Origin: a virus
DNA: 64,000 nt
Reading direction: 5' to 3' (one strand)
Virus record (IMG/VR): IMGVR_UViG_3300017774_003070
Location: 39,830 to 103,829 of that record
Shown here piece after piece: positions 40,401-64,000 of the stretch (the first letter of the stretch is position 1; each line of letters begins with the position of its first letter). A model generated the notes under the pieces. That model was not told the origin of the DNA and made no database searches. It saw nothing but the letters and a program-made list of their open reading frames with translations. The position numbers and the translations under genes were made by a program.

Positions 40401-41291
40401 TTAAAATGGATGATCTACATCAGCTAAAATAGGCTGTGTACTTCTGTGGTAATTGTAAACAATAGTAGCATGACGGGTTACATCTTGATAATTAATATCT
40501 TGATCTTCATCCACTAGTTGATTAATGCTTGTGATATAAGTACTTAACTCCTCTGCTAGTTCTGGAAAAATTGTAGATTCATCCATACCACTAACCTCTA
40601 TAAGAACGTCCAAAGCATCTCTGTATTGCTGCTCATCAGGTTCCTGGTTGACTACAGGTAGTTCAGTCATCATTTCTCTAACCTCTTCAGTTGTAATAAC
40701 TGACTCAACTACTGGATTGTGATAGCTGTGAATTATAGTAGCATAACGAATTACCTCTTGATTACTTAGCCGAGTGTGACTCATTGACCGCATCAAGTCT
40801 ATGTAGTCAGAAAAAGGTAGATGTATATTACGTAACTGAGAAGCTTCACCTAGATATGTAGATAATCTCATTTCTTCAATAGCAGTATCGTACTCAGCTT
40901 GAGTTGGTCTAACTGTAGATTGAGGAATAATAGTCTCTTGCTTAATCTTAGCAAACTCATTCAACTGTTCTACAGTAGGTAACTTAAACATTTCCCACAG
41001 GCATACAAATTCAATCTTGTACTCTATTCCTTTCGTATGTTTCAGTATCCATATCTGCTGCTTAATCACATCAGTAATAGAGTTAGCTGAAAAGTCAAAG
41101 TAAAAGGTATCATCAATGACAATACATTTCAATTGATGCTTGTCAACTAAACCATTGTAGTAATAAGCTTTACCGTTACCTATAGTACAGTTGTTCAAAC
41201 TACACCACTTGTCAGATAAGATACTAAAGTCTTTTGTACTACCACAATAAGGTCTGTCAATCCAAAAGTCCGTTATGTCGATAGTTTGCAT
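40401..41291 (-). CDS. Hypothetical protein with two internal repeats of about 65-70 aa, overlapping the ThiF gene
   Basis: P...[EQ]Y..A...Y[IL]......Q[ED]V.R[YH]ATI...YH occurs twice. Confidence 0.6.
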   Translation of the reverse strand: MQTIDITDFWIDRPYCGSTKDFSILSDKWCSLNNCTIGNGKAYYYNGLVDKHQLKCIVIDDTFYFDFSANSITDVIKQQIWILKHTKGIEYKIEFVCLWEMFKLPTVEQLNEFAKIKQETIIPQSTVRPTQAEYDTAIEEMRLSTYLGEASQLRNIHLPFSDYIDLMRSMSHTRLSNQEVIRYATIIHSYHNPVVESVITTEEVREMMTELPVVNQEPDEQQYRDALDVLIEVSGMDESTIFPELAEELSTYITSINQLVDEDQDINYQDVTRHATIVYNYHRSTQPILADVDHPF

Positions 41292-41877
41292 CTACTAGAG
41301 TTGGGTCGATGATGAATTTATTTACAATACTCACTACACGTCCGTGGATTGACTTAGCCATGTACATCGAACTCTTAGTTGTACAAGGAACTGATTCTGT
41401 ATCAGAACCTCCTAACCAATCACGTCCATCTCCTTTCATGTACACTTGAATACTGTACATATCCGCAAGCATTCCAGGAGAGATGAATAGATCACCATCG
41501 TCAATTCTCCAACGATTGTACATGTCTTCAAGTGTTTTCCAATCATCTGCTGCTGCTATTACAATCTTGTCCAGACCGTTAGCAGCTCCCCACTTCTTAC
41601 CATAGCAATTAATGTCAGAAGTATCACCTACAAATTCAGCCATCTGGAACTTGAACGCATCAGTCTTCTTCCAACCAATGAATTTAGATTGATAGCCCTG
41701 TACACCTACATTGACAGCCTCTACAACGTCTCCGTCCCAAACTGTAAGTGTATGGCCAGCAAGAGCTAAAGTCTCAGCCACACCACGTCCTACACCTCCT
41801 AAACCAACAACTGTTATGTCCATTGGTTTAAACCAAGCGCAGTCAGAGAATCGTTTAGTTATATCAGTGTTGAGCAT
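41257..41877 (-). CDS. ThiF/E1-like adenylyltransferase
   Basis: VVGLGGVG, WDGDVVE..N...Q, K, AAD; candidate catalytic Cys in SVPCT. Confidence 0.9.
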   Translation of the reverse strand: MLNTDITKRFSDCAWFKPMDITVVGLGGVGRGVAETLALAGHTLTVWDGDVVEAVNVGVQGYQSKFIGWKKTDAFKFQMAEFVGDTSDINCYGKKWGAANGLDKIVIAAADDWKTLEDMYNRWRIDDGDLFISPGMLADMYSIQVYMKGDGRDWLGGSDTESVPCTTKSSMYMAKSIHGRVVSIVNKFIIDPTLVDANYRHNGLLD

Positions 41878-43551: not shown

Positions 43552-44202
43552 TTACTTCAGATCGAAGTGCTGGTTGATAAAGTCAACGTCAGCTTTGATT
43601 GAAGCTACTTCAGCAGTAAGTTCCTCGTCTACTTCAAGTGATTCTACAATGTGTTGAATGCGATCAACTTTAGCCTCAATAGCCTCAATGCGAGTAATAA
43701 TAGCTTGGAAATCATCTGCACCAACTTCAACAACTTCAGGAGAAAGAAGTTTAACGGCTTCCTCAACTACATCTACAAGCAAAGAAACAGGATAGTGAGT
43801 GTAGTTACCAATAACTGCTTTTACTTCAGCAGATACTTGGCTCAATTCACGACAAGCAGTACGCAAGTCTTTGTAAACTTGACTAACCAATGCAGACTTA
43901 GCCGCAGCAATTACTTCAGCCAATTCCTCAGTAGAGTAAGCCCGAGCCTTAGTCTCTCTTGGCTGCTGTGTGATCATAACTACAGATGTAGGATCAAGGC
44001 TGAGAACTGTATCTTCAGTCAATTCACCGTAGTTACGGCCAGCACTGTGCTTATAACTGTAATTGATAATAGTAGAACTGTCTACAGTGAAATTCAAATC
44101 ACGATTAGATAATTCTCCTTGAAGAGCTTTCAATGTAAGCTCAGTATAATCAACAATAATGCGTTCTGCATCAGAGGCACCACCAATAAATTTAATAGTC
44201 AT
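43552..44202 (-). CDS. Putative ubiquitin-like (beta-grasp) N-domain plus helical/coiled-coil C-domain
   Basis: Beta-beta-alpha-beta pattern (TIKFI...TLKALQGEL...EDTVL...VVMIT) ending near RETKAR; first gene of the E2-JAB-ThiF cluster. Confidence 0.55.
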   Translation of the reverse strand: MTIKFIGGASDAERIIVDYTELTLKALQGELSNRDLNFTVDSSTIINYSYKHSAGRNYGELTEDTVLSLDPTSVVMITQQPRETKARAYSTEELAEVIAAAKSALVSQVYKDLRTACRELSQVSAEVKAVIGNYTHYPVSLLVDVVEEAVKLLSPEVVEVGADDFQAIITRIEAIEAKVDRIQHIVESLEVDEELTAEVASIKADVDFINQHFDLK

Positions 44203-44214
44203 GTTTGTATTTAT

Positions 44215-44475
44215 TTAGCAAGGCTTTACCAGCATTGCTCTGTTTGAATGAATGTCTTCTATGTGAAAGAATCCAGTTGGAATTCCTTCTGTGTAACTAC
44301 TGTAACCTTCTAGTCCTATGAATATCTTCTCATCTATCTTCACTATTCCTTGTAGAAAGCTTAAGTGACTCTTGTTGTTGTAAAGTAATCTACAAGCCAT
44401 TCTTTCACTGTAACCTCCATATCTAGTTTGTACCAGCTTCAAGAGTAGCTTGGAGTACTCTTCTTGATTCATCAT
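44215..44475 (-). CDS. Hypothetical protein
   Basis: Probable start MMNQEEY, overlapping the primase end. Confidence 0.4.
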   Translation of the reverse strand: MMNQEEYSKLLLKLVQTRYGGYSERMACRLLYNNKSHLSFLQGIVKIDEKIFIGLEGYSSYTEGIPTGFFHIEDIHSNRAMLVKPC

Positions 44476-45313
44476 ATCCAATCTCTTTAACACAATCAGA
44501 AATATCTTTAGGATAACCATCTGGTAATACAAATGCTTCACACCCAATAGAGTTGAGATAAGCCGCATAGTTCTTACCAGGAACGTCATTGTCTACAAGA
44601 TACTTACCAATTGGTGGATTCTTTACTGATTCTGAATGAATGTATCTACTACTGTATCCTAAATTACAAAGTACCATATAATCCTTAGCTGACTTGGTAA
44701 AGACTGGTTCGGACACTAACGCTGTCATCCCACCTATTTCATTACCTGTAAAGTCAGCCAAGAATCTAAATTCGTTAAAAGGTCTGTATATCTTAACTCT
44801 GTCTGCAACGTTAATTGCATAAGTCAAGTCTGCTGGATACACTTCTGTAGACCTATAAGAGTACTGATACACAGAGTCAATCTTTTCAGATTTTAACTGA
44901 GCTGTACTTATCCCGTACTGTTCCCAATAAACCTTGTCTACTGCTGTAAACTCTTTGGGAAAGTAGTTGAGCTTGAACGGCTCTTTAGTTGGATAAGTAA
45001 TAGGACTCTGTGTATCGTACTGTAATTTGGTTTCTTTCAGACTTGAAAAATCTGAATGACTTAAAAATTTACCAATTTTAAAGCCTGTATATTTAGCTAT
45101 CTTGAATACAGTCTTCCCATGAAACATAGGATGCCCATAGTCTTGTAGATATAACCATCCATTCCATTCATATATTCTACAACCCGGTCGCCTGTCTACC
45201 CTTAATGGATTACAAAACTTCTGACCAATCTCAAGTAGAGGCATGTTCAGTACATTTCTCCACAAGCTTAATTGGTCAGTACATTTAAAGTCTATTGAAG
45301 TTTGAGGTAGCAT
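44423..45313 (-). CDS. DNA primase (crAss-type, TOPRIM)
   Basis: NPLR.D..PGC, YW.QYGI, KIYRP, TKS.KD.M, DND.PG, KDISD. Confidence 0.8.
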   Translation of the reverse strand: MLPQTSIDFKCTDQLSLWRNVLNMPLLEIGQKFCNPLRVDRRPGCRIYEWNGWLYLQDYGHPMFHGKTVFKIAKYTGFKIGKFLSHSDFSSLKETKLQYDTQSPITYPTKEPFKLNYFPKEFTAVDKVYWEQYGISTAQLKSEKIDSVYQYSYRSTEVYPADLTYAINVADRVKIYRPFNEFRFLADFTGNEIGGMTALVSEPVFTKSAKDYMVLCNLGYSSRYIHSESVKNPPIGKYLVDNDVPGKNYAAYLNSIGCEAFVLPDGYPKDISDCVKEIGYDESRRVLQATLEAGTN

Positions 45314-45333
45314 TTGGCAGGATTTAGGTTATA

Positions 45334-46128
45334 CTAGAATGGAATGTCAGAAAAGTCCTGTGGATGAATGGTATAATGAACCTTACGAGTATTACCTTCA
45401 AAGTCACGCACAAATGGACGTTTAGCATCTTGCTTTTCCATGTAGGTAATACCTTGAGTATAACCAGTACGAAGGAATTTGTCAGCCAAGCTAGTTTGTG
45501 TGTACTTACCATCTTTCTCAGTAACAGTCAACAATACGTCAATAGTTGCTTCCCACTCAGACTCTGGTTGTAGAACGTCATTCCATTCATCACCAGTCTT
45601 TACTCCTTTGTACTCTCCAAGCTTTGCAAATACTATCATCAATGCAGGAATGTCCAATGTACCATTCAAGAGATCATTAAAGGAAGTTCCATCATTTGAC
45701 TCTGTAAACAGCTTCTCAATAGTGTAGTACTTCTTGCTTGAGATGAGTGTATGAAGAAACTCATAGTATTGACGCTCACCTTTACGCGCCTTACGAGGCA
45801 ACTTATCCTCTGTCATTCCCCAAATCTGACCATCTTCACCTTGACGAATAAGATTGTCTTCTTTAGCCCACATGGCTTCAAAGATTGTCTTTCTTTTGTC
45901 AGCAGGTTGCACAGTAGCAATCCATTCAAAGTTACCATTTGGAGTCTCTACAAGCTCATTAGAAAATGGAATCTTCAAGTAGCACGAGGTCTTCCCCGTC
46001 ACTTCCTCCAAGAGAATCGACAAGTTCTGATACTCCTGATTGATCTCCATTGATTTCACTCTCATTGTGTGGTAGCCCGTCCGCAGCTGTTTCGGTTGGT
46101 ACTGTGGTTGATTCGTTGGAATTGCCAT
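45334..46128 (-). CDS. Putative single-stranded DNA-binding protein
   Basis: Between ERF and primase; RKARKGE motif; acidic DFSDIPF tail. Confidence 0.55.
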   Translation of the reverse strand: MAIPTNQPQYQPKQLRTGYHTMRVKSMEINQEYQNLSILLEEVTGKTSCYLKIPFSNELVETPNGNFEWIATVQPADKRKTIFEAMWAKEDNLIRQGEDGQIWGMTEDKLPRKARKGERQYYEFLHTLISSKKYYTIEKLFTESNDGTSFNDLLNGTLDIPALMIVFAKLGEYKGVKTGDEWNDVLQPESEWEATIDVLLTVTEKDGKYTQTSLADKFLRTGYTQGITYMEKQDAKRPFVRDFEGNTRKVHYTIHPQDFSDIPF

Positions 46129-46549
46129 TGATAACTAATTTGAATGTTTTGATTAAAACGTTTGTTCCTGATTCTGTAGCTCTTTCTCCTTCTGCTACAA
46201 GCTCTAAAAGATACTCCCCATGAAATCCAGAAAGGTCTGTTTGAAAAGTCTCAATAACAGCTTTCGTAATTTCAAGACCTGTAGTTCCAATTCTAGTGTC
46301 GTACGTCTTATTTGGAGCACATTCAGCAGAGTATGGAGATGGGGTTGTAATGTACAAAGTCCCTTCTAATTCTCGGAATAAAATGTACGAGTTTTCACTT
46401 GCAATTAACTCTACTGTCTTGCTACTTAACTTAACTTTAGGTTTACGTGGGTTAGTACTTGGAATAATTTTCACCCAAGCAGACACTTCTTTAGTGGCTC
46501 TTTTGCTCTCTCGTGGAGGCAAGGCCATCAGTTGATCCAGTAATGACAT
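45959..46549 (-). CDS. Hypothetical protein with a long acidic tail overlapping the SSB-like gene
   Basis: ORF follows ERF gene; last 170 nt overlap the next gene. Confidence 0.55.
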   Translation of the reverse strand: MSLLDQLMALPPRESKRATKEVSAWVKIIPSTNPRKPKVKLSSKTVELIASENSYILFRELEGTLYITTPSPYSAECAPNKTYDTRIGTTGLEITKAVIETFQTDLSGFHGEYLLELVAEGERATESGTNVLIKTFKLVINGNSNESTTVPTETAADGLPHNESEINGDQSGVSELVDSLGGSDGEDLVLLEDSIF

Positions 46550-46556
46550 TTAGTAA

Positions 46557-47165
46557 TTATTTAAGGTTTGGCATAGTTGCCTTAATAGCTAATTTGACTT
46601 GATCGGAAACAGTGTACTTGTCAGTAATTTGTGACCATTGAGTAAGTTCACCTTTAGTATACTGTTGTTTCAATGCTTCTGCCTCTTTACTCCCACCTAC
46701 AAGATTAGGTTTTGTTGTAGCACTTACAGGACTAGCTTTAGGAGCTTCGTAAGTGGTAACGACTGATACTCCGCTAGTAGCATTCCCATCATCGTCCTCT
46801 GCTTGAAAGTTGAACAAGCTGTTGAACATGTAACGACGATAATAAGTGATTTGCGAACCAATCTGTTGGGCTGTTTGCCCAGTCAGATTAAGCTGACATG
46901 TAAACCTAATCCATTCTCCTGATTCTACATCTGTTACTTGCATGATCAATCCATCACCTGTAAGCATAAAACCTGTTACAAGTTTAACTTCATTGAGTAC
47001 TGGAATTACTACGCTAAGAATAGAATTGAGATCTGCATACTTACTAACTTTACCATTCTGCTTGAACGCAGCATTGGCAGCAGTTTTAACTACAGACAAT
47101 TCTTTCTCTTGTACTTTAAAAATCTTAGACCAAACGTTGTTAGTCTGTTCTGATGTTTCAATCAT
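46557..47165 (-). CDS. ERF-family ssDNA annealing protein
   Basis: SKYADL...ESGEW...QQIGSQITYYRRY...AEDDDGN. Confidence 0.9.
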   Translation of the reverse strand: MIETSEQTNNVWSKIFKVQEKELSVVKTAANAAFKQNGKVSKYADLNSILSVVIPVLNEVKLVTGFMLTGDGLIMQVTDVESGEWIRFTCQLNLTGQTAQQIGSQITYYRRYMFNSLFNFQAEDDDGNATSGVSVVTTYEAPKASPVSATTKPNLVGGSKEAEALKQQYTKGELTQWSQITDKYTVSDQVKLAIKATMPNLK

Positions 47166-47173
47166 ATTACAAT

Positions 47174-48316
47174 TTATTTACGAGCATCATAGCTCAGGGA
47201 CATGATTTTACTTGAATACTTACCATCCAAACTTCTAACTACAATTCCTTCAATCATATTGCTAGTAAAGTATTCTTCACAAGTCTTCAGAAGCTCTTCA
47301 CGGCTTTCAAATGTCTGATTGAATACAATAGTAGGATGTTGGAAACCAAGAGCCGCTACAAGTTCTATGTACTCCATATGAGACATTCTCTCAGCCTTAT
47401 CAAAGTACCAGTCAGCACCAAAGAAGTAAATAGTTGGTTCAATCCTAGCATGTGGATTATTCTTGTTTCCAGAACCATTGCTAGCTCCTTGACCGACTAA
47501 TTCACCACGAAGAGCTATGGATATGTTTCTTTCAGTGCAGTAGGCTACAAGCTTCTCCAAATAAGGCTTACCAACCTTGACAAACTCAGATTCAGATTCA
47601 ATCTCAGTGTAAGTAGCTCTGTCATAACCAAACAATGACCAGAACCATGCTTTCCAAGACTTATCAAATCCAGTCTTCTTAAAGTACTTCAGAGGCTTCT
47701 CAAGGTTACGGGAGCAGATTCCAGCTTTACCATCTTTAAAATACAGAGAAATTGAGCTGCCGTCACACTTGACCTGACCAATTAGTTGTATAGGAAAAGG
47801 AAGAGTAATCTTGTTAATGTTTGGTTCATCAGTTCGGTACAATCCTTCTGGAAACTCACGAGAAGCACCAGCTTGACCTGTATTACCTTTGGTTCGTTCA
47901 GGAGCTTCGTACTTGTAAAGACCAATTTGTTTGGCGGCTTCTTCTAAACTTCCCCACTTGCGTACTCGAAGTACTGACATAGCCTCATCATAAGGAAGTA
48001 GAATACCATTGGAGTAAACAGGTAAACCATCACCACGATGTAGATTAAATTTGATTGCTCTGATTCTATTATGAGAGCCTAACTTAGACTTTTTGGGGTC
48101 GCCAAAAGGTTTAGTATAGGATTCAAATAGAGGCACATCGTCTGGAAGATTGTAGTCTGGTTCAATGAATATGACTAGATCACCAACTTGGTATAGATCT
48201 TTCTGTGCTACTAACTGAAATCCAAACTCCTCAATTTCAATAAGTTCAATTGAATTCGCAGGTTCTTCACCCTTATACAATTGGATCTTGTCTTTAATTG
48301 TTACTATGTGAATCAT
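47174..48316 (-). CDS. ATP-dependent RNA ligase (Rnl2/DRB0094 family)
   Basis: KCDGSS (I), RGEL.G (III), EGIVVR (IV), KIMS (V); N-terminal OB-like domain. Confidence 0.85.
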   Translation of the reverse strand: MIHIVTIKDKIQLYKGEEPANSIELIEIEEFGFQLVAQKDLYQVGDLVIFIEPDYNLPDDVPLFESYTKPFGDPKKSKLGSHNRIRAIKFNLHRGDGLPVYSNGILLPYDEAMSVLRVRKWGSLEEAAKQIGLYKYEAPERTKGNTGQAGASREFPEGLYRTDEPNINKITLPFPIQLIGQVKCDGSSISLYFKDGKAGICSRNLEKPLKYFKKTGFDKSWKAWFWSLFGYDRATYTEIESESEFVKVGKPYLEKLVAYCTERNISIALRGELVGQGASNGSGNKNNPHARIEPTIYFFGADWYFDKAERMSHMEYIELVAALGFQHPTIVFNQTFESREELLKTCEEYFTSNMIEGIVVRSLDGKYSSKIMSLSYDARK

Positions 48317-48317
48317 T

Positions 48318-49391
48318 CTAAAAACGATTTAATTCATAAAATTGATTGACTGCACCATCAAACCCAACTACCAATTCTCTATCTTCCAGTACACCTTCTC
48401 GTGTCTTTAGAAAGCAAAGTGATCTAATGCGTTGTTTACGTTGTTCCACTTCATTAAGATTGATACCATTGTACACTCCTCCTGCAATGTGTTCTTTCCA
48501 CTTGTGAGGGTCAAATATCCCTATCACAAAAGTAGCGTCATCAGCAGAGTTTTTGTACAAAGCAAGACCATCAATAGAAGGTTTAACTTTCTCAATAAAC
48601 GTCTTAGGTTTAATGTTGGCTTCTATTTGATCTTTAGCTTTTACTTGCTGTTGAATCAAAAAGTTAATACAACCATACTTTAAACCAAGAATAACACGAG
48701 ATTGAGTGATGCAAAACTCTTGAAGAGTATCGTAAAGGGTAGTTCCTCTTCTCGGCCTGTAACAACCTATGTGATCAGATACTACAATTACAAATTGATT
48801 AGGGTCGTCATAGATAAATACTTCTTCTTTCTTCCCATCAATCTCCATCATTTGTAAACTACCATACTTACTCATTTCTGACACTACTAGATTAAAGAAC
48901 TTAGTAGCATCAGACTCAGTGACTAGAGTAAGATTAGGTTCTATCTCAATCTCATAAAAATCTGTAGCTTCCTTAACCAATTCTAATTGACGTGGTGTAA
49001 GTAGTGTTTCTGAGTAGCCAAGAAGCTGGTAATAAGATACATGCTCTTCAAACTCACTCAAGTATTCAATAAGATAATTAGACTTGAACTTCTCTTCAGC
49101 TTCTTCCAGAGTATTAAATATAATCGAAATCTTTAGCTTGGGTTTTATTCTCCTGAGATTAGTAAGTGTATTAAGGAGAAAGTGAGCAAGCTTTGATTTT
49201 CCGACTCCGGTTGATCCGCTGAGAATTCCGTGGTCGCCTTTAATGAATCCTGGAAATGAGTTTCGTAAAGAAGGGAATGCATAGTACAAAGGAAGAAAGT
49301 TTACATCTCCTTGCTTAATTGCTTCTTGGTTAGTAATGATTCGATCATATAAACCGCGAAAGGTCATACTTAGTATTCTTACGTGATGCAA
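48318..49391 (-). CDS. DnaB-like replicative helicase
   Basis: GSTGVGKS Walker A, TLEE, VSDHI, KTREG; probable start 49367. Confidence 0.8.
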   Translation of the reverse strand: MHHVRILSMTFRGLYDRIITNQEAIKQGDVNFLPLYYAFPSLRNSFPGFIKGDHGILSGSTGVGKSKLAHFLLNTLTNLRRIKPKLKISIIFNTLEEAEEKFKSNYLIEYLSEFEEHVSYYQLLGYSETLLTPRQLELVKEATDFYEIEIEPNLTLVTESDATKFFNLVVSEMSKYGSLQMMEIDGKKEEVFIYDDPNQFVIVVSDHIGCYRPRRGTTLYDTLQEFCITQSRVILGLKYGCINFLIQQQVKAKDQIEANIKPKTFIEKVKPSIDGLALYKNSADDATFVIGIFDPHKWKEHIAGGVYNGINLNEVEQRKQRIRSLCFLKTREGVLEDRELVVGFDGAVNQFYELNRF

Positions 49392-49914
49392 TCTCTTCTA
49401 CAAATGTTCGTAGTGTAGAACCATTCTGATCCTCAATGAAGTTATTAAAGTCCTTGATGAATCTACCATTCTCAGCACAACTCTCAATGTAAACCTTAGC
49501 TGCTTCCTCTGCTTGTTCTAACGTAATACCATTGTTTTCCATAAAAAGCTTCAACTTAGCAAGAGAAGTAATTGGATCACCAGCTTTACCTACTTGTCCT
49601 GAGAATGAACTTGTAAAGTAATCTCGTACTCTGCTTAGTTCACCTTCTACTTGATTTTGAATAAACAGTGGCTTTGTTAATACTAGTCTTGATCCTTCTT
49701 GCTTGTAGTTTGTCGTTAATAGTCCATTCTTATAGTCTTCAACAATCAGTTTTTCTATTACGTGGTCGTACTCTGCTTTCGTCACAACAACTCCAGACTC
49801 ATCAGTTAAGAGTTCTGAGATGTTTATTCCTTCCTCTATACAAAAGAGGACTAACTTTTTGATCTTACTTTCACTTTCGGTAAGACCTTCAATGTAACAC
49901 GGATTAATTAGCAT
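49345..49914 (-). CDS. Hypothetical replication-associated protein
   Basis: Overlaps helicase start; A.K.YI...FI motif. Confidence 0.5.
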   Translation of the reverse strand: MLINPCYIEGLTESESKIKKLVLFCIEEGINISELLTDESGVVVTKAEYDHVIEKLIVEDYKNGLLTTNYKQEGSRLVLTKPLFIQNQVEGELSRVRDYFTSSFSGQVGKAGDPITSLAKLKLFMENNGITLEQAEEAAKVYIESCAENGRFIKDFNNFIEDQNGSTLRTFVEEIASRKNTKYDLSRFI

Positions 49915-49947
49915 ATAATGTATTTAGAGGGGTTCAGAAATGCTTAA

Positions 49948-50190
49948 TTAGGATTCAATAATAACTAAACGCCTTTTAGTTAAAACATACTTGTCCCAAA
50001 ACTGTTCTCTATCAGATTCAGCTTTTTCAGGATCATTGGTATATTCTAACCATTCTTCTTCAATAGCTGCTCTTACTGATTCCTCTGAGTTGGCTTGATA
50101 CAAACCTCTTACACAATCCCATCCATCTTGAGTAGATGTCAAGATAAAGTAAAGAGGTTCCGTAGGTAACTCTCTGTCAAAGTAACTCAT
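49948..50190 (-). CDS. Hypothetical protein
   Basis: Co-directional ORF. Confidence 0.5.
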   Translation of the reverse strand: MSYFDRELPTEPLYFILTSTQDGWDCVRGLYQANSEESVRAAIEEEWLEYTNDPEKAESDREQFWDKYVLTKRRLVIIES

Positions 50191-50526
50191 AACTTACCAT
50201 TTTTATCAAGGTGATATACTACAGCTAGTGCCGTGTAACCAACAAGAAACGTTAGTAAAACTGCATTCCTGTGCCAATTATATTCTTGAGTGAAGAGGTT
50301 AAAAAGTAGGTACAAGAACAATACTCCGTGAACCATAGCTTGCCAATGTATTTGTTTCATAATTTGGTACTGAACAGTTTGTAAAATAAAGGAGTAATTA
50401 GAATACAGAGTACAAGTCTAATGACCATTCCTTTTATTGTATCTGGAATCCAATAACCAAATAACAGTTTGACTATAATAGTTTGCCCCATCAATGTTAT
50501 TAGAAAACACCACAGGTAATTGATTT

Positions 50527-51822
50527 TCATAATCTTAAATTTTCCTTAGTTATTAAATTACTCTCAACTTCAGCTACTACATTCAAGTTAACTTTCCTAG
50601 TCTTTCTACCTTTCGAGTCTTTCACCTTTTGCATCTCTACCAGCCACTTTTCCTCGTAAGTGTCACGAGCTACAATAATATACACTCTTCCTACCTTCCC
50701 TTCAACACGTCTGATGACTCTACCTATCGTTTGTATGAGTTGACCAGAACTTGATTGAAAAGTAACTAGAATGATATTTTGTAGACCTTTGAGAGTGACA
50801 CCTTGCTGTAGTGCTTTAGAAGTAGCTATTACATCAATCTCACCAGCATTGAACTGTGAAACTAGACGTACTGCATCTTTCTTGTCATCAACTACATTAG
50901 GAGTTAATTCCCACAGTAGTTCTTTCTCAACTGAGAAGAGAATTGTAGGAGTGTCGATGAGATCAAGAATCTGTTTAACTACAGGTACTTTGGACTTGAG
51001 CTTGTACAAGAACTTAGGCATATGCACTTTGATGATCTGACTAGCCTGATAGATTAATCCCTTTCTAGTCTTATCGGCAGGGTTGTCAATACTGAATCCT
51101 TGTGCAAATAACTTATTCGAGTAAGCTTTTCTCTTGTCCCACCAATCTTTCTCAGTGGTTGTCCAAGTAGCTGTAATAGCACAGTTCTTGTTAGTGTTAT
51201 CTAAGTTGTGGTAGATAATTACAGTCTCAAACGGAGAAAGTACTTCTAAGTCAATCAGCTCATCTTCTGTCTTGGTGTAGACTATAGGACAAAACATCTT
51301 CAGTAAGTCCCCCTTGGTCGTTTGAAATGTAATCTGCTTATTGTCTATTTGTTCTTGAGTCATGTGAAGCTTAGGAACTGCTTTATCTGGATAAACATAC
51401 AGATTCTCGTTGGGAGTACCAGTAAGTCCAAGTTTGTACTTTGCAATTGACTCACTTATCTGACTTAATCTGCTATTTGTAGCTGCGTCGTGGCATTCGT
51501 CATAGCATTCAAACACACCTGATTTATCAGAGTTAGCTTGATAGGTTGTGAATTCAATCTTGAAGTCCTTAACTGGATTCATTCCAAAGATAGATTCAAA
51601 CTTATCTGCTTCTGGTATTACAGTATTCTGCCATCTATTTGACCTTTCAGCTTTAAATACAACCAAGTCTTCACTAGTTAATAAACCTGCATCCTGAAGC
51701 CTGTAGAGACTCTTGAAGAAGCAGAAAGTCTTTCCAGCTCCTACACCCAAGTTGAGTGTTCCAACGTAGCCAGCTTTCTCCCAGGCATCTACAGCCTCAT
51801 TTTGTATCTGATCCTGTATCAT
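50527..51822 (-). CDS. Superfamily 2 (UvsW-like) helicase
   Basis: Q motif, GVGAGKT, DECH, LTGTP, QTIGRVIR. Confidence 0.85.
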   Translation of the reverse strand: MIQDQIQNEAVDAWEKAGYVGTLNLGVGAGKTFCFFKSLYRLQDAGLLTSEDLVVFKAERSNRWQNTVIPEADKFESIFGMNPVKDFKIEFTTYQANSDKSGVFECYDECHDAATNSRLSQISESIAKYKLGLTGTPNENLYVYPDKAVPKLHMTQEQIDNKQITFQTTKGDLLKMFCPIVYTKTEDELIDLEVLSPFETVIIYHNLDNTNKNCAITATWTTTEKDWWDKRKAYSNKLFAQGFSIDNPADKTRKGLIYQASQIIKVHMPKFLYKLKSKVPVVKQILDLIDTPTILFSVEKELLWELTPNVVDDKKDAVRLVSQFNAGEIDVIATSKALQQGVTLKGLQNIILVTFQSSSGQLIQTIGRVIRRVEGKVGRVYIIVARDTYEEKWLVEMQKVKDSKGRKTRKVNLNVVAEVESNLITKENLRL

Positions 51823-51997
51823 GTTTGACTAAGTTCTTTATCAGTAAAGTAATTAGAATTATGAATGAAACAGAGTTGGCAGAGAGATACAGAATCTCAT
51901 CCTTTGATAACTCGTCAAACTTTTGAAAGAGTCTTAGTGCAAAGCCTAGTGAAAACACACTTGCAAACCAAGTCACTATAAGTAATGTAGTTTTCAT
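51797..51997 (-). CDS. Small two-TM membrane protein
   Basis: Two hydrophobic helices. Confidence 0.5.
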   Translation of the reverse strand: MKTTLLIVTWFASVFSLGFALRLFQKFDELSKDEILYLSANSVSFIILITLLIKNLVKHDTGSDTK

Positions 51998-52009
51998 AAA
52001 TCAATATTT

Positions 52010-52285
52010 TCAGACCAGCTCATCTAAGTACATTTTTCGTAGTTCTAAATATTCACGAGCAATTGCAATAGCTTCTTTCTCATGTAAATACAGTTTCAAA
52101 CTATCTAAGCAATCTAAGTCCTCAGAAGATACATAAAACCAATTATCGCAGAGATAGTTGTCATCCCATTTAATCAGAGAGTATTCTTTCTTGTGATCTT
52201 CTCTTGATTTTACCATCTCATAAGTGGCTACATGACCATACTTGCTTAGGTAAAGATGTTTAGGCCAATTCACAGTGTTTTCCAT
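52010..52285 (-). CDS. Hypothetical protein
   Basis: Co-directional ORF. Confidence 0.5.
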   Translation of the reverse strand: MENTVNWPKHLYLSKYGHVATYEMVKSREDHKKEYSLIKWDDNYLCDNWFYVSSEDLDCLDSLKLYLHEKEAIAIAREYLELRKMYLDELV

Positions 52286-52441
52286 ATCCTTACATTTTTA
52301 GCTGACTTTGGTACTTTACTTCTTACAGAATCAATATTGTCAGCTTGAACTTTCTTGTTCTTCCAAACTTGTCTAATTGTGTATTCGATGATGTACCAGC
52401 TCATGCTAATTAGTTTTAGAAGTTTATAAACTTGTCTTCAT

Positions 52442-52705
52442 CTAAAATCCATCAAAGTAAACGTTCAGTTCCTCCTCGTAAGGTGTATTCAGTTCTTTTG
52501 TGAGATCAGCTATCCTACGAAATGAATGTTCTTCCCACATTCCAGTATCGGTAAGTACAATCTTGTAGAAGCCATCCACATCTCTAACAACACATCCATG
52601 GATCTGTCCATTGAACTTAATGTCATATACAGACGGATTACTTGTAGGAGATAAGAAAATGATATTCTTAGGACTACTGTTCACTTTGTCTGATTTCATG
52701 TTCAA
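52442..52705 (-). CDS. Hypothetical protein
   Basis: DVDGFY...W......IAD...ELN motif. Confidence 0.5.
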   Translation of the reverse strand: MNMKSDKVNSSPKNIIFLSPTSNPSVYDIKFNGQIHGCVVRDVDGFYKIVLTDTGMWEEHSFRRIADLTKELNTPYEEELNVYFDGF

Positions 52706-52913
52706 CTGCTTTCATACAGAAGTACTTAGAGCCAGTAGACAATCTTTCACTATCAGGTTGAATCATCTTGTAGAATACTTCCCACATATCACCAAATCTG
52801 TGCATGATAGTGTAATCTCCAAGTGTCATGTAGTAACTATGATCTATCCAATCAAATAATCTACCGTCATTGTAGATGGGAAAGTTCTCAGACTCAATTA
52901 GTTCTAATCCCAT
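52674..52913 (-). CDS. Hypothetical protein
   Basis: Co-directional ORF. Confidence 0.45.
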   Translation of the reverse strand: MGLELIESENFPIYNDGRLFDWIDHSYYMTLGDYTIMHRFGDMWEVFYKMIQPDSERLSTGSKYFCMKAVEHEIRQSEQ

Positions 52914-52915
52914 AA

Positions 52916-53410
52916 TTAGAATTGTTTACCATGTTTGTAAGCTCTCGTAAGATTGTAGTCTAACTTCCACATGATGTAGGATAGCAAATCAAACTTGTGA
53001 TGTACAGCATAACTATAAAGTCCTGTGAGTACACTAGAAAGTGCGATGTCTTTTTCTTCGTTTGCTAAAACCAAGTTAACTTCCTTGTTCAGCATGAGAA
53101 AGTTACAACCTTCATCAACTCCAAACATAAAGTTCACACTGTTCAAAACTGCAACTTGTAGATTATTACCACCAGCCCAATCGTAAACACGAATTGCTGC
53201 ATCAGCAATTTCTACTTCAAAAGAGTCTTTAACTGCTTGAGTATCATTCCAATCAGGCTTTACTCGAACTTTACGAAAAGCTTCAAGAGCTTCATAGATT
53301 TCAGAATTAATAAGTGCAAGTGACATAGATTCAGTAAGAGGTTGCTCCCAAAATCCCTTATCTACAGCTTGCTTGTGTGACCTTTCAATTAGTTGTTGGT
53401 GATTCATCAT
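52916..53410 (-). CDS. MazG-like NTP pyrophosphohydrolase
   Basis: KGFW...LALINSEI.EALEA.R...EIAD..IR..D...KL.YN.TR.YKHGK. Confidence 0.85.
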   Translation of the reverse strand: MMNHQQLIERSHKQAVDKGFWEQPLTESMSLALINSEIYEALEAFRKVRVKPDWNDTQAVKDSFEVEIADAAIRVYDWAGGNNLQVAVLNSVNFMFGVDEGCNFLMLNKEVNLVLANEEKDIALSSVLTGLYSYAVHHKFDLLSYIMWKLDYNLTRAYKHGKQF

Positions 53411-53600
53411 TTAGTATTATGTTGATTAGTTTAAATTCTTCAGCCCAAGTATGATCACAAGTCTTGCATACAACTTCTCTGTAAGCAGCAGTACCTATTG
53501 CATCAAACTCTGACCCTGAAATATCATCAGAACCACAGTAAGGACATTCACTAGGGTCTTTAAGATATTGTCCAAGTGTAATTTCAAGTGGTCTACTCAT
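53385..53600 (-). CDS. Zinc-ribbon protein
   Basis: CPYC...CKTC...W.E.F.L. Confidence 0.7.
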   Translation of the reverse strand: MSRPLEITLGQYLKDPSECPYCGSDDISGSEFDAIGTAAYREVVCKTCDHTWAEEFKLINIILNDESPTTN

Positions 53601-53832
53601 TTTAGCTTACTAGATATGTGATAAAAAACTTTGCAATTGCAAACAGACTAGCAAGGAAAATAAATCCAATTAGGACAAATAATCCTTTAGCAAATGGTGT
53701 TAATTGTGGTTTACTCATTTTTCAATCTATTTAATACGTTGACAAGAAATGTTGAGGGTCTTGATAATAAGTGTACTTTCTCTTACTTCAGAAACTACCC
53801 ATTTGACACCTTCATGTGTTATTCTATCTCCT

Positions 53833-54069
53833 TTACTCATTGACCTCAACAATTTTAACGTTAATAACTGATCCCATATTCTTAATCTTCTCTTCTTCAG
53901 GTGCAGTAGTAGTTTCAAACTCAATGATCATGTAAGTAGCACTATGATTGATTAGCACAGTATCATTAATTAAGCCTCTGTTAAGTAAACTAAAGAACTG
54001 ATGATACGCTTTAGGTCTACTAAACTCTACGGATACAGTCCATTTCATTTCAAGTAGCTTGCAACCCAA
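53833..54069 (-). CDS. Hypothetical protein
   Basis: Co-directional ORF. Confidence 0.45.
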   Translation of the reverse strand: MGCKLLEMKWTVSVEFSRPKAYHQFFSLLNRGLINDTVLINHSATYMIIEFETTTAPEEEKIKNMGSVINVKIVEVNE

Positions 54070-54728
54070 TTCTCAATTACATCAGCACACTCAATCTTAC
54101 TTTGTATGTCAGAAGGTTTAGCTTTGATAGCCGCTTCTACACGAGCGTTACTCATTCCTCTTCCTATACACAGTTTGTAAGCAGATTCAATGTCTTTCCA
54201 AGCTGGAATGTCTTCCCCCAATTTCATCTGGATAGCTGCTGCAAAGTCTTCCTTGTCATCCAACTTGGTTTCTTTAAGACTTTCCATCAACTCCTGATAT
54301 TGTGCATTAAGCGTACGTTCCATTCTACCAGACACATCGTAAGTAGGCTCTACTTGTTTCTTTGCTTCGTGAGTTTCAATTAACTTGAGAAGACTTTCAG
54401 CATTACTGTAGTACTTTCCTTCTTTAGTATCAGGAAGTGACTTGTAACGTCTGTAGTCAGACATAATCTTAGTCAATGAATCTTTAGTTGACCTTTGAGT
54501 TGGTTTAGATGGTACTGTACTTGCATCAATTCCTGCTAGTGAGAGCACTGCTTCTATGATACGAGAACGTTGAATGCCTGCATTTTCACTACTAATAGTA
54601 TTTCCATTCACTTTCTTTTCTAAATCGTTAAACCTTGAAGTCAGTAAAATAACTTCATTGCTAAAAGGTAAAGATTCAAGTGCTTCCTTGGTCTTACCTT
54701 GAGAAATAAGTTGTTGTATCTTGTTCAT
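54045..54728 (-). CDS. EAD11 (effector-associated domain 11) protein
   Basis: IQQLISQGKTKEAL...NEVILLTSRFNDL....GNTIS.E......SRI..A.L.L matches the EAD11 pattern; start set at M8. Confidence 0.7.
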   Translation of the reverse strand: MNKIQQLISQGKTKEALESLPFSNEVILLTSRFNDLEKKVNGNTISSENAGIQRSRIIEAVLSLAGIDASTVPSKPTQRSTKDSLTKIMSDYRRYKSLPDTKEGKYYSNAESLLKLIETHEAKKQVEPTYDVSGRMERTLNAQYQELMESLKETKLDDKEDFAAAIQMKLGEDIPAWKDIESAYKLCIGRGMSNARVEAAIKAKPSDIQSKIECADVIENWVASYLK

Positions 54729-54888
54729 TTTTATAATTTTTAGCTTCATCTTTAGCTAACTGAAGCGTATTGTACGAGTTAATGTAAATCTTGTTGTAAT
54801 ACAACTTAAAGAACCCGTGAATCTGTATAATTGTAAAGTCATTACAAGTCCATACTTGCTGATTATTATACGTCCATTCCATCTTCAA
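54694..54888 (-). CDS. Hypothetical protein
   Basis: Packed ORF. Confidence 0.45.
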   Translation of the reverse strand: MKMEWTYNNQQVWTCNDFTIIQIHGFFKLYYNKIYINSYNTLQLAKDEAKNYKNEQDTTTYFSR

Positions 54889-55057
54889 GTGTTATACCAG
54901 TTAATGTGTAATGTTCTAACCATTCTTTCTCACAATTATAGCACCTCACGTACTTTGTAAGTTTAGTATTCTTATTGATAGTTTCGTAGGCTGTTATGTG
55001 CTTAGACTCACAGTAAGGGCATTTGTCAGCAGACTCTAAGTATTCTTCTTCAGTCAT
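54866..55057 (-). CDS. Zinc-ribbon protein, paralogue of 53385..53600
   Basis: YL....KCPYC...CYNC...W.E.Y.L. Confidence 0.7.
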   Translation of the reverse strand: MTEEEYLESADKCPYCESKHITAYETINKNTKLTKYVRCYNCEKEWLEHYTLTGITLEDGMDV

Positions 55058-55320
55058 CGGTCTAACTGCTTTTGATATTCTTCTTCAGTAAGGCAATATG
55101 AGCCGTCCATAGCTATACCGTTAAGGCTTTGTCCTTTAAACATTTCCATTTTAGCATGTTTACCAAGATCAGTTATAATGATCTGATCAAGAATCTTCAC
55201 TGCTGAGTAGACATGCCCTTCTTCAAATACTCCAGCCAAGTCTCTACCCATTAGTACAGCGTTAAAACCATCTAATTTAGTTATTCGTGTTATCATTTTG
55301 GTTGTAAGATGTAACACCAA
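55054..55320 (-). CDS. Hypothetical protein
   Basis: ATGA-coupled to next gene. Confidence 0.5.
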   Translation of the reverse strand: MVLHLTTKMITRITKLDGFNAVLMGRDLAGVFEEGHVYSAVKILDQIIITDLGKHAKMEMFKGQSLNGIAMDGSYCLTEEEYQKQLDR

Positions 55321-55384
55321 GTGTCAGTGTCTTGTAAAATTGGATAGAGATCATGTGGAAAGTTATTTCCGTAGTTGTCTTTCA

Positions 55385-55588
55385 TTAGTTAATATATTTA
55401 GCTACTTCCTGATCTTCTGGATTGATGTTGAGATCAAGTTTCCAAGCCAGAATTTCAAAAGGAGATATGAATTCAGGATAGTAGCGACAAGAATCAGTTA
55501 ATGCCTGCATCAAATACTCTACTTTTTTGTAGTCATCTAATTGCTCCCACAAATCCTTAAAGTCTTTTAAAGAGATATTGTTTTCCAT
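55385..55588 (-). CDS. Hypothetical protein
   Basis: TAATG overlap. Confidence 0.5.
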   Translation of the reverse strand: MENNISLKDFKDLWEQLDDYKKVEYLMQALTDSCRYYPEFISPFEILAWKLDLNINPEDQEVAKYIN

Positions 55589-55788
55589 TAGTATTCTATT
55601 TGGTCAGTTACTTCAGTCAAATACTGTTCGTTCACAGGTATTCTCTCACCATCTTCCAATTCTACCATTAAAGGGTCTTCACAAGTAATTATACCTACAC
55701 AAGGTGTAGCCACATAGGGGTAACCTTCGTAGACATTGTGAATGCAAACTTGAGTTCCTATTTCCATAATGTTTATTATTATAAGCAA
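55588..55788 (-). CDS. Small hypothetical (SH3-like) protein
   Basis: IGTQV...GII...VELEDG......L. Confidence 0.45.
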   Translation of the reverse strand: MLIIINIMEIGTQVCIHNVYEGYPYVATPCVGIITCEDPLMVELEDGERIPVNEQYLTEVTDQIEY

Positions 55789-55803
55789 AATGCTGTAAAA
55801 TGA

Positions 55804-63225: not shown

Positions 63226-63762
63226 TTAAATTGACAGTGCAAAGATGAAGTCAGCAAGTTCTTTGGACTCTCTCAAGCCTTTACCAAACCGTTCTTTAAG
63301 CCATTTGACACCTTGTAGTTTATTACCATACTTGTAGTCGTCTATGAATTCTCCAGTGTCAATCATACTCAGTTCGTAATCAGAGAAAGCATGAACATTG
63401 TAGCTACCAGAGCTTTTGTATTTAGTAATCCAACTTGGTGTAGTAATTTCAGTTACAATCCAAGGCTCATCTGCATTGACGTATTCAAAATGCCCCATAT
63501 CTTTTTCACTCACTTCAATCTCAAATTTGCGAGTTTTCACAGGCTCGAAGAAGTCGGTGTTAGAGAATGGGATGAAGGCAATTACTCCATGTGCATTAGA
63601 TTCAAAGATTTCTCCTTTTTCGATGCTGGAAATTATTCCATTTTGAGAAGTTGAAAATTTAGCTTTGTATTTCATGGTTTTGAATTTTAGTAGTTGAGTA
63701 TCACAATTCACCTTTAGTTCTGAGTAGCGAGTAAGCTTGAGCAAATAATACTTTACTGTCAA
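63226..63762 (-). CDS. Hypothetical protein with C-terminal L7/L12-like motif
   Basis: NKLQGVKWLKERFGKGLRESKELAD resembles the ribosomal L7/L12 CTD pattern K..A.K..RE..GLGL.EAK..VD; probable start MKYKAK. Confidence 0.5.
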   Translation of the reverse strand: MTVKYYLLKLTRYSELKVNCDTQLLKFKTMKYKAKFSTSQNGIISSIEKGEIFESNAHGVIAFIPFSNTDFFEPVKTRKFEIEVSEKDMGHFEYVNADEPWIVTEITTPSWITKYKSSGSYNVHAFSDYELSMIDTGEFIDDYKYGNKLQGVKWLKERFGKGLRESKELADFIFALSI

Positions 63763-63955
63763 GAATTTCAGAATGAGTCTTTTGCTTACACCATTCTTTT
63801 TTCAAGTAAGTTATCTTATTATTTACGTAAGCTTTACCTTTTTCAGCTAACCATTCACAAGCAAGAGTATAATCAGCGTCTCGTATCAATTGATCTCTAA
63901 GCTTACTCTCCCTTGCTTGAACAGCTTCTTTTTCGGTATGGTACTTATCATACAT
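63701..63955 (-). CDS. Hypothetical protein
   Basis: Co-directional ORF. Confidence 0.4.
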   Translation of the reverse strand: MYDKYHTEKEAVQARESKLRDQLIRDADYTLACEWLAEKGKAYVNNKITYLKKEWCKQKTHSEILDSKVLFAQAYSLLRTKGEL

Positions 63956-64000
63956 GTAAAATGGTTCAGTCCAACCACGAGTCTTGTAGCAGTCACAGTC

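Follow-up and report, generated by a model that had tools for sequence, protein, structure and literature searches.

A freshwater crAss-like phage encodes an EAD11 adaptor domain joined to a conserved helical domain: a candidate modular counter-defense protein

Introduction

EADs are small, non-enzymatic terminal domains that occur on the core component and on the effectors of bacterial NTP-dependent conflict systems, and homotypic recruitment of effectors has been proposed as their role (Kaur, Burroughs, Iyer and Aravind, eLife 2020, PMC7159879). The proposal was made from comparative genomics alone and regards these domains as plugs that join bacterial NTPase hubs to suicide enzymes. Ten EADs are treated in the main text of that paper, and the name EAD11 appears only in Pfam. 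For bacterial CARD-like adaptors, a link between sensors and proteases or other effectors in anti-phage defense was reportedly shown experimentally in a preprint (bioRxiv 10.1101/2023.05.28.542683). A literature search revealed neither a paper naming EAD11 in the adaptor-domain sense nor one describing a phage-encoded EAD, and no experimental test of the EAD-EAD homotypic model was found.

Animal viruses encode death-fold decoys, among them pyrin-only and CARD-only proteins. The vFLIPs of poxviruses and herpesviruses, e.g. MC159, are viral death-fold decoys as well (cited in PMC8195603).

Here, a gene of a freshwater crAss-like phage was analyzed, the product of which carries EAD11 at its N-terminus and a conserved, family-specific helical domain (CTD) at its C-terminus. 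As in the conflict systems described in PMC7159879, the phage domain is helical and terminal, and its bacterial relatives carry TIR, SIR2, CHAT and Roc-COR domains, as the EAD model predicts. In contrast to these systems, the protein is phage-encoded, a second EAD11, an NTPase or a VMAP core is absent both nearby and genome-wide, and the fused CTD is no recognized effector or signaling enzyme and was not found in bacteria. With the death-fold decoys the protein shares that it is a viral copy of a homotypic host adaptor without the host effector enzyme, for which the action of a dominant-negative cap would be expected, but it belongs to another domain superfamily and its host to another kingdom. 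Moreover, the death-fold decoys consist of one adaptor or of tandem adaptors and their binding and inhibition are proven, whereas the phage protein adds a large conserved domain and is a putative decoy. The CARD-like defense of the preprint represents the type of wiring that such a protein would target, although the adaptor family differs (CARD-like versus EAD11).

Sequence data and survey design

The window analyzed comprises 64,000 nucleotides at the right-hand end of an IMG/VR virus record, which is 103,829 bp long and rated 96% complete. The source is a crAss-like phage from freshwater; a crAss muzzle protein (PF25731) was matched at 123 bits, two giant virion ORFs of 3166 and 1681 aa are present, and a family-A DNA polymerase, a helicase, an RNA ligase and a primase are encoded in the window. 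The stretch is present in freshwater metagenomes from several studies, and no RNA runs were among the sequencing runs listed with it. No signs of lysogeny were seen in the window.

The protein family was defined by an exhaustive HMMER search of 1.84 billion cluster representatives, for which the C-terminal 153 residues alone were used as query. The distribution of EAD11 in bacteria was surveyed in 401 genomes spread across the Bacteroidota and then in 81 genomes of one family. All residue numbers given for the protein refer to the 227-aa form.

Gene structure and domain organization

The gene and its parts were assigned to the following positions of the window:

54045..54728, minus strand: whole gene, 227 aa plus stop, with the stop codon at 54045-54047 (ORF list and translation)
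54534..54725, minus strand: EAD11 adaptor domain, residues 2-65, four helices (Pfam PF19964 and AlphaFold2 model)
54486..54533, minus strand: variable linker with a high content of Ser, Thr and Asn, corresponding to residues 66-81 (pLDDT and alignment)
54048..54485, minus strand: C-terminal helical domain (CTD), conserved and family-specific, residues 82-227

When read from the first ATG, the ORF is longer (54045-54749, 234 aa) and contains seven additional in-frame residues upstream, and a second ATG at 54728 gives the 227-aa form. The likely translation start is 54728, because all 33 of the 33 full-length homologs align beginning at the methionine of this position.

The initial annotation had assigned the N-terminal ~64 aa to EAD11, followed by a linker and a helical region, and a HMMER comparison with the Pfam EAD11 profile had been set beforehand as the test. 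The match was significant (E = 1.4e-12, 47.9 bits at a cut-off of 26), with an alignment spanning profile positions 3-76 of 80, and the remainder of the predicted layout was borne out by an AlphaFold2 model of the whole protein (22 homologs, pLDDT 81.6). In this model four helices are located at the N-terminus (3-9, 13-19, 24-41 and 47-64), the pLDDT falls below 50 for linker residues 74-79, and everything C-terminal of the linker is all-helical. The phage EAD11 thereby fits the description of an EAD as a small, non-enzymatic, all-helical and terminal domain (PMC7159879). The linker is the least conserved segment, with 24-67% identity among close homologs, and its length varies between family members (16-79 aa).

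According to Pfam, TIR, SIR2, CHAT and NTPase domains are absent from the phage protein. No defense family of PADLOC-DB 2.0 was matched at E <= 0.001, no significant family was obtained from PHROGs, and fold searches with the whole model returned generic helical hairpins only (Foldseek best E = 0.72, VIA best Z = 8.0). In the whole record of 103,829 bp a single EAD11 match was found, namely the phage protein itself, and therefore any homotypic partner would have to be a second copy of this protein or a protein of the host.

The protein family and its phage loci

A word-based search yielded 33 full-length homologs with 45-82% identity, annotated with EAD11 only, some of which are located on contigs of 104-111 kb. 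The HMMER search resulted in 84 clusters at E <= 1e-3, nearly all of 216-263 aa. Since 73 of the 84 cluster representatives carry EAD11 (PF19964) at the N-terminus and the others are mostly short fragments, EAD11 plus CTD appears to be a stable architecture, in which the CTD essentially never occurs without EAD11. Two members of about 308 aa (P0034 and P0046) have a tandem of two EAD11 copies ahead of the CTD. All ten family members that were looked up are unnamed metagenomic proteins.

Besides the phage of the window, two further phage contigs with a family member were obtained. Locus L003 is a viral contig of 101.6 kb (CheckV 36% complete), which probably derives from a much larger phage that is not crAss-like and also encodes DnaB, a T4-type RNA ligase and an intein-bearing ribonucleotide reductase. 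L001 is a viral contig of 12 kb. In both (L003:8790-9716 and L001:4583-5287), the gene for EAD11-CTD is directly adjoined by an N6/N4 DNA methyltransferase, and in L003 the family gene lies between the RNA ligase and the methyltransferase; a DNA methyltransferase of the adjoining type was looked for in the phage of the window and none was found. The family is thus present in at least two phage types, each time among replication genes, where the genomic context covers 3 of about 84 clusters and an occurrence in phages only is presumed for the remaining ones. As a side observation, the large subunit of the ribonucleotide reductase in L003 (13668-16652, plus strand) is split by an intein that contains a LAGLIDADG homing endonuclease.

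Searches beyond these loci were negative. GenBank phages (INPHARED) gave no family match by tblastn, two metagenome scans and three viral scans with family queries gave no locus, and a profile search of genome contigs with the family alignment gave nothing. Longer proteins with an EAD11 like that of the phage were sought by word-based searches and none appeared, which is weak evidence.

The C-terminal domain

The CTD was modeled alone from 86 sequences with high confidence (pLDDT 97.2, pTM 0.79). The model begins with a short helix at the N-terminus, continues with a long hairpin formed by helices 21-45 and 54-89 (domain numbering) and ends in three further helices. A set of polar residues is nearly invariant in the family (R94, K124, D131, R135, E160, Y184, G189-R190-G191, D207 and E219). 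The domain is near neutral, with a mean pI of 6.4, and a DNA-binding signature is absent; with such a pI, the CTD would not stand out as a nucleic-acid binder, nor would it pass for an acidic mimic of DNA.

Despite its confident model, the CTD has no detectable relative of known structure. When the CTD-only model was compared with the PDB, the best Foldseek match had E = 0.83 and the best VIA match reached Z = 7.8 while covering the hairpin alone; against BFVD the best value was E = 0.85. A sequence profile search of the PDB for CTD relatives gave nothing below E = 0.1, Pfam, PHROGs and PADLOC contained no match to the domain, and the ESM Atlas no usable one. Searched for an effector or signaling domain fused to the EAD, the protein offers a CTD that matches no entry of Pfam, PADLOC, the PDB or BFVD and that has nevertheless kept its nearly invariant polar residues.

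In about 480 Bacteroidota genomes (401 phylum-wide and 81 of the EAD11-rich family described below) the CTD was not found. In the EAD11-rich family, neither the phage protein (P0001) nor its relative P0022 gave a credible CTD match, and a profile restricted to the CTD, for which three divergent phage sequences were used, returned a single 18-bit match at chance level. The whole-family profile reached bacterial genomes through its EAD11 part only. Judged by these searches, the CTD appears to be restricted to a phage-associated family, and it is a candidate for a new anti-defense module.

Evolution of the two halves

The two halves of the protein differ in their conservation. Within the close family, the mean identity is 49% for EAD11 versus 75% for the CTD, and EAD11 identity is only weakly correlated with CTD identity when all pairs are considered (Spearman 0.29). 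In one group of homologs (P0022-P0026) the CTD is about 80% identical to that of the phage protein and EAD11 about 25%; in another (P0029-P0033) the values are 52-61% for EAD11, 54% for the CTD and 20% for the segment between them. With its divergent EAD11, P0022 matches other bacterial EAD11 proteins than the phage protein P0001 does, at a modest identity of 30-34%. Domain exchange or lineage-specific acceleration could have produced these patterns; either way, the presumed docking half has changed while the CTD was conserved. Such a pattern fits a constant functional part combined with a docking part that may be retargeted.

Comparison with other freshwater sequencing runs provided a view at shorter distance. 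Pieces of the EAD11 gene are near identical there (0-1 letters different), and contigs of these runs cease to match at the gene borders 54050, 55057 and 53840 and then continue with unlike sequence. This suggests a mosaic of cassettes, in which related phages would carry a different gene at the EAD11 slot. In one X5 contig, the divergence sets in exactly where the EAD11 gene reaches its 3′ end.

EAD11 in Bacteroidota

EAD11 is rare across the phylum and greatly expanded in one lineage. Above the cut-off it was detected in 5 of the 401 genomes, as a rule with multiple copies per genome, which frequently lie in neighboring genes. Two of these five genomes (G076 and G356) belong to one Bacteroidota family, of which 81 genomes were surveyed; EAD11 occurs in 48 of these 81, and as many as 32 copies were counted in one genome (G424). 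The view that EAD11 is prominent in Bacteroidota consequently has to be narrowed: it holds for this one family and not for the phylum as a whole. Of the initial hint at an EAD11-rich, possibly Saprospiraceae-like host, the existence of EAD11-rich bacteria is borne out by this family, in which the nearest bacterial counterpart of the phage domain was also found.

Coupling of EAD11 to immune-type effectors in Bacteroidota was observed directly in the surveyed genomes. The fusions comprise TIR-EAD11, SIR2-EAD11, EAD11-CHAT (a caspase-like protease) and Roc-COR GTPase-EAD11; in addition, EAD11 is joined to uncharacterized partner domains and in one protein stands alone. Adjacent genes encode TIR-EAD11 with EAD11-X or EAD11-CHAT with SIR2-EAD11, and in the short flanks of the adjacent pairs no NTPase was found. 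In a PADLOC search, resemblance to known defense systems was seen for the TIR and SIR2 parts, namely to Thoeris ThsA/ThsB, Argonaute-associated TIR and PDC-S66. Some of the partner genes are small (214-222 aa) and consist of EAD11 and about 120 aa of uncharacterized sequence, a size plan like that of the phage protein. These small partners were considered as homologs of the phage protein and rejected, given that the EAD11 part alone aligns.

Overall, the phage EAD11 is moderately similar to the sampled bacterial EAD11 domains (18-53% identity). The nearest bacterial EAD11 belongs to a 281-aa EAD11-CHAT protein of the EAD11-rich family (BLASTP, 33 of 68 positions identical, 49%, E = 1e-12), the second nearest to a 249-aa EAD11-TIR protein of the same family (39%), and identities to EAD11 elsewhere in the phylum are 18-32%. 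In a tree of the EAD11 domains, phage and bacterial sequences are intermixed on long, poorly resolved branches, and the tree gives no direction of transfer. A DNA search with positions 44001-64000 of the window against the 81 genomes of the EAD11-rich family produced no match.

Proposed function and alternative explanations

On these data, we propose a modular counter-defense protein that would dock on host EAD11 modules and whose CTD would block or disable the bound effector or hub, a reading whose chances we regard as evenly balanced. The protein would be made from the replication-gene arm of the phage, and its N-terminal EAD11 would dock by homotypic EAD-EAD contact on host EAD11 modules, such as those on TIR, SIR2 and CHAT-protease effectors and on NTPase hubs. 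The flexible linker would keep the CTD beside the bound host protein, and the CTD would cap, sterically block or otherwise neutralize the assembly, such that the abortive-infection response would not be launched. Homotypic binding to host EAD11 is expected from the EAD model, itself a computational one (Kaur et al. 2020), and the inhibitory outcome and the role of the CTD in it are presumed.

Several observations argue for the counter-defense proposal. The phage protein carries no recognized effector domain; the methyltransferase that adjoins the gene in two of three loci is a common anti-restriction gene; and contigs that stop at the gene borders are as expected for an accessory cassette. On the other hand, a pure decoy would not need a 145-aa domain whose conservation exceeds that of the decoy part itself. 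As an adaptor homolog without a host effector domain, the protein matches the idea of a decoy put forward initially; the conserved CTD is left unexplained by a plain decoy. A bolder version of the proposal, which we consider speculative and would not expect to hold in full, is that a fast-switching EAD11 head targets the EAD11-tagged suicide enzymes of the local host and that a constant, possibly enzymatic CTD disables them.

Other explanations assign a different role to one or both halves. EAD11 might be a mere self-association module of a protein whose CTD works in DNA replication or gene regulation without an immune role. The gene indeed belongs to the replication arm, where DNA polymerase and helicase genes lie on either side of it, and has RNA ligase and methyltransferase neighbors in L003; furthermore, the CTD is the conserved half, and tandem EAD11 copies could simply raise valency. 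We nevertheless consider this explanation rather unlikely, as the near-neutral CTD lacks a DNA-binding signature, the bacterial partners of EAD11 are nearly all immune-type enzymes, and the absence from the INPHARED GenBank phages together with the sporadic occurrence in unrelated phage types points to an accessory rather than a core gene. Somewhat less probable still is a hijack, by which EAD11 would plug the CTD into host hubs or recruit EAD11-tagged host enzymes to a target bound by the CTD, with a benefit such as the exclusion of competing phages or the redirection of host NADases or proteases. In conservation the CTD surpasses EAD11, and its polar set hardly varies, which would be expected of an enzyme or of a specific binding module, and since bacterial EAD11 is normally found on effectors, a protein of EAD11 plus an unknown domain is effector-shaped. 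Against this, the CTD matches no enzyme or toxin family or fold, a partner hub is absent from the phage record, and recruiting TIR, SIR2 or CHAT enzymes during its own infection would be risky for the phage.

The similarity in size plan to the bacterial two-gene modules, in which an effector-EAD11 gene is paired with a small gene for 214-222 aa, opens another path: the phage gene could be a host-derived moron, i.e. the sensor or regulator half of a two-gene EAD11 module that acts with host effectors against other phages. This we judge to be very unlikely. No alignment exists between the phage CTD and the C-terminal parts of the bacterial partners, the CTD was not found in the roughly 480 bacterial genomes searched, and no signs of lysogeny, in the presence of which such morons usually occur, were seen in the window.

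If the counter-defense proposal in its two-part form were true, phages would for the first time be seen to possess an equivalent of the animal-virus death-fold decoys, and the protein would offer the first experimental handle on the homotypic-recruitment model of EADs in the apoptosis-like immunity of bacteria. A phage protein that has the plug but not the enzyme would be expected if the wiring is real and important during infection. It could also serve as a simple reagent for probing EAD11 wiring, and the concentration of EAD11 in a single Bacteroidota family indicates where the matching host systems may be studied.

Genomic neighborhood

The EAD11-CTD gene is part of a long co-directional array of replication genes and small uncharacterized genes and lies between the DNA polymerase (55804-57855) and the helicase (50527-51822). 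Its immediate neighbors are small ORFs without Pfam families. Of an EAD-coupled conflict system, only the single EAD11 was found in the record, and its neighbors are small zinc-ribbon or uncharacterized ORFs. A scan for promoters and terminators gave promoter-like sites at chance level and no terminator.

Several minor features were noted in this region. Two paralogous zinc-ribbon ORFs of about 65-70 aa (CPYC...C..C) flank the EAD11 gene at 53385-53600 and 54866-55057, both on the minus strand; their Pfam matches are below threshold, to FdhE_central and to the Lar restriction-alleviation family (17 bits versus a cut-off of 28.6). Farther away, the segment 41257-44202 (minus strand) contains a ThiF/E1-like ORF at 41257-41877 (Pfam, 40.2 bits); for the other three ORFs of the segment, Pfam yielded no family at E <= 0.01. 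Directly downstream of the EAD11 gene, a small ORF at 53833-54069 (minus strand), which overlaps the last 25 nt of that gene, is hypervariable between freshwater runs, with dozens of substitutions and paired insertions and deletions of 1 nt at 53890-54031.
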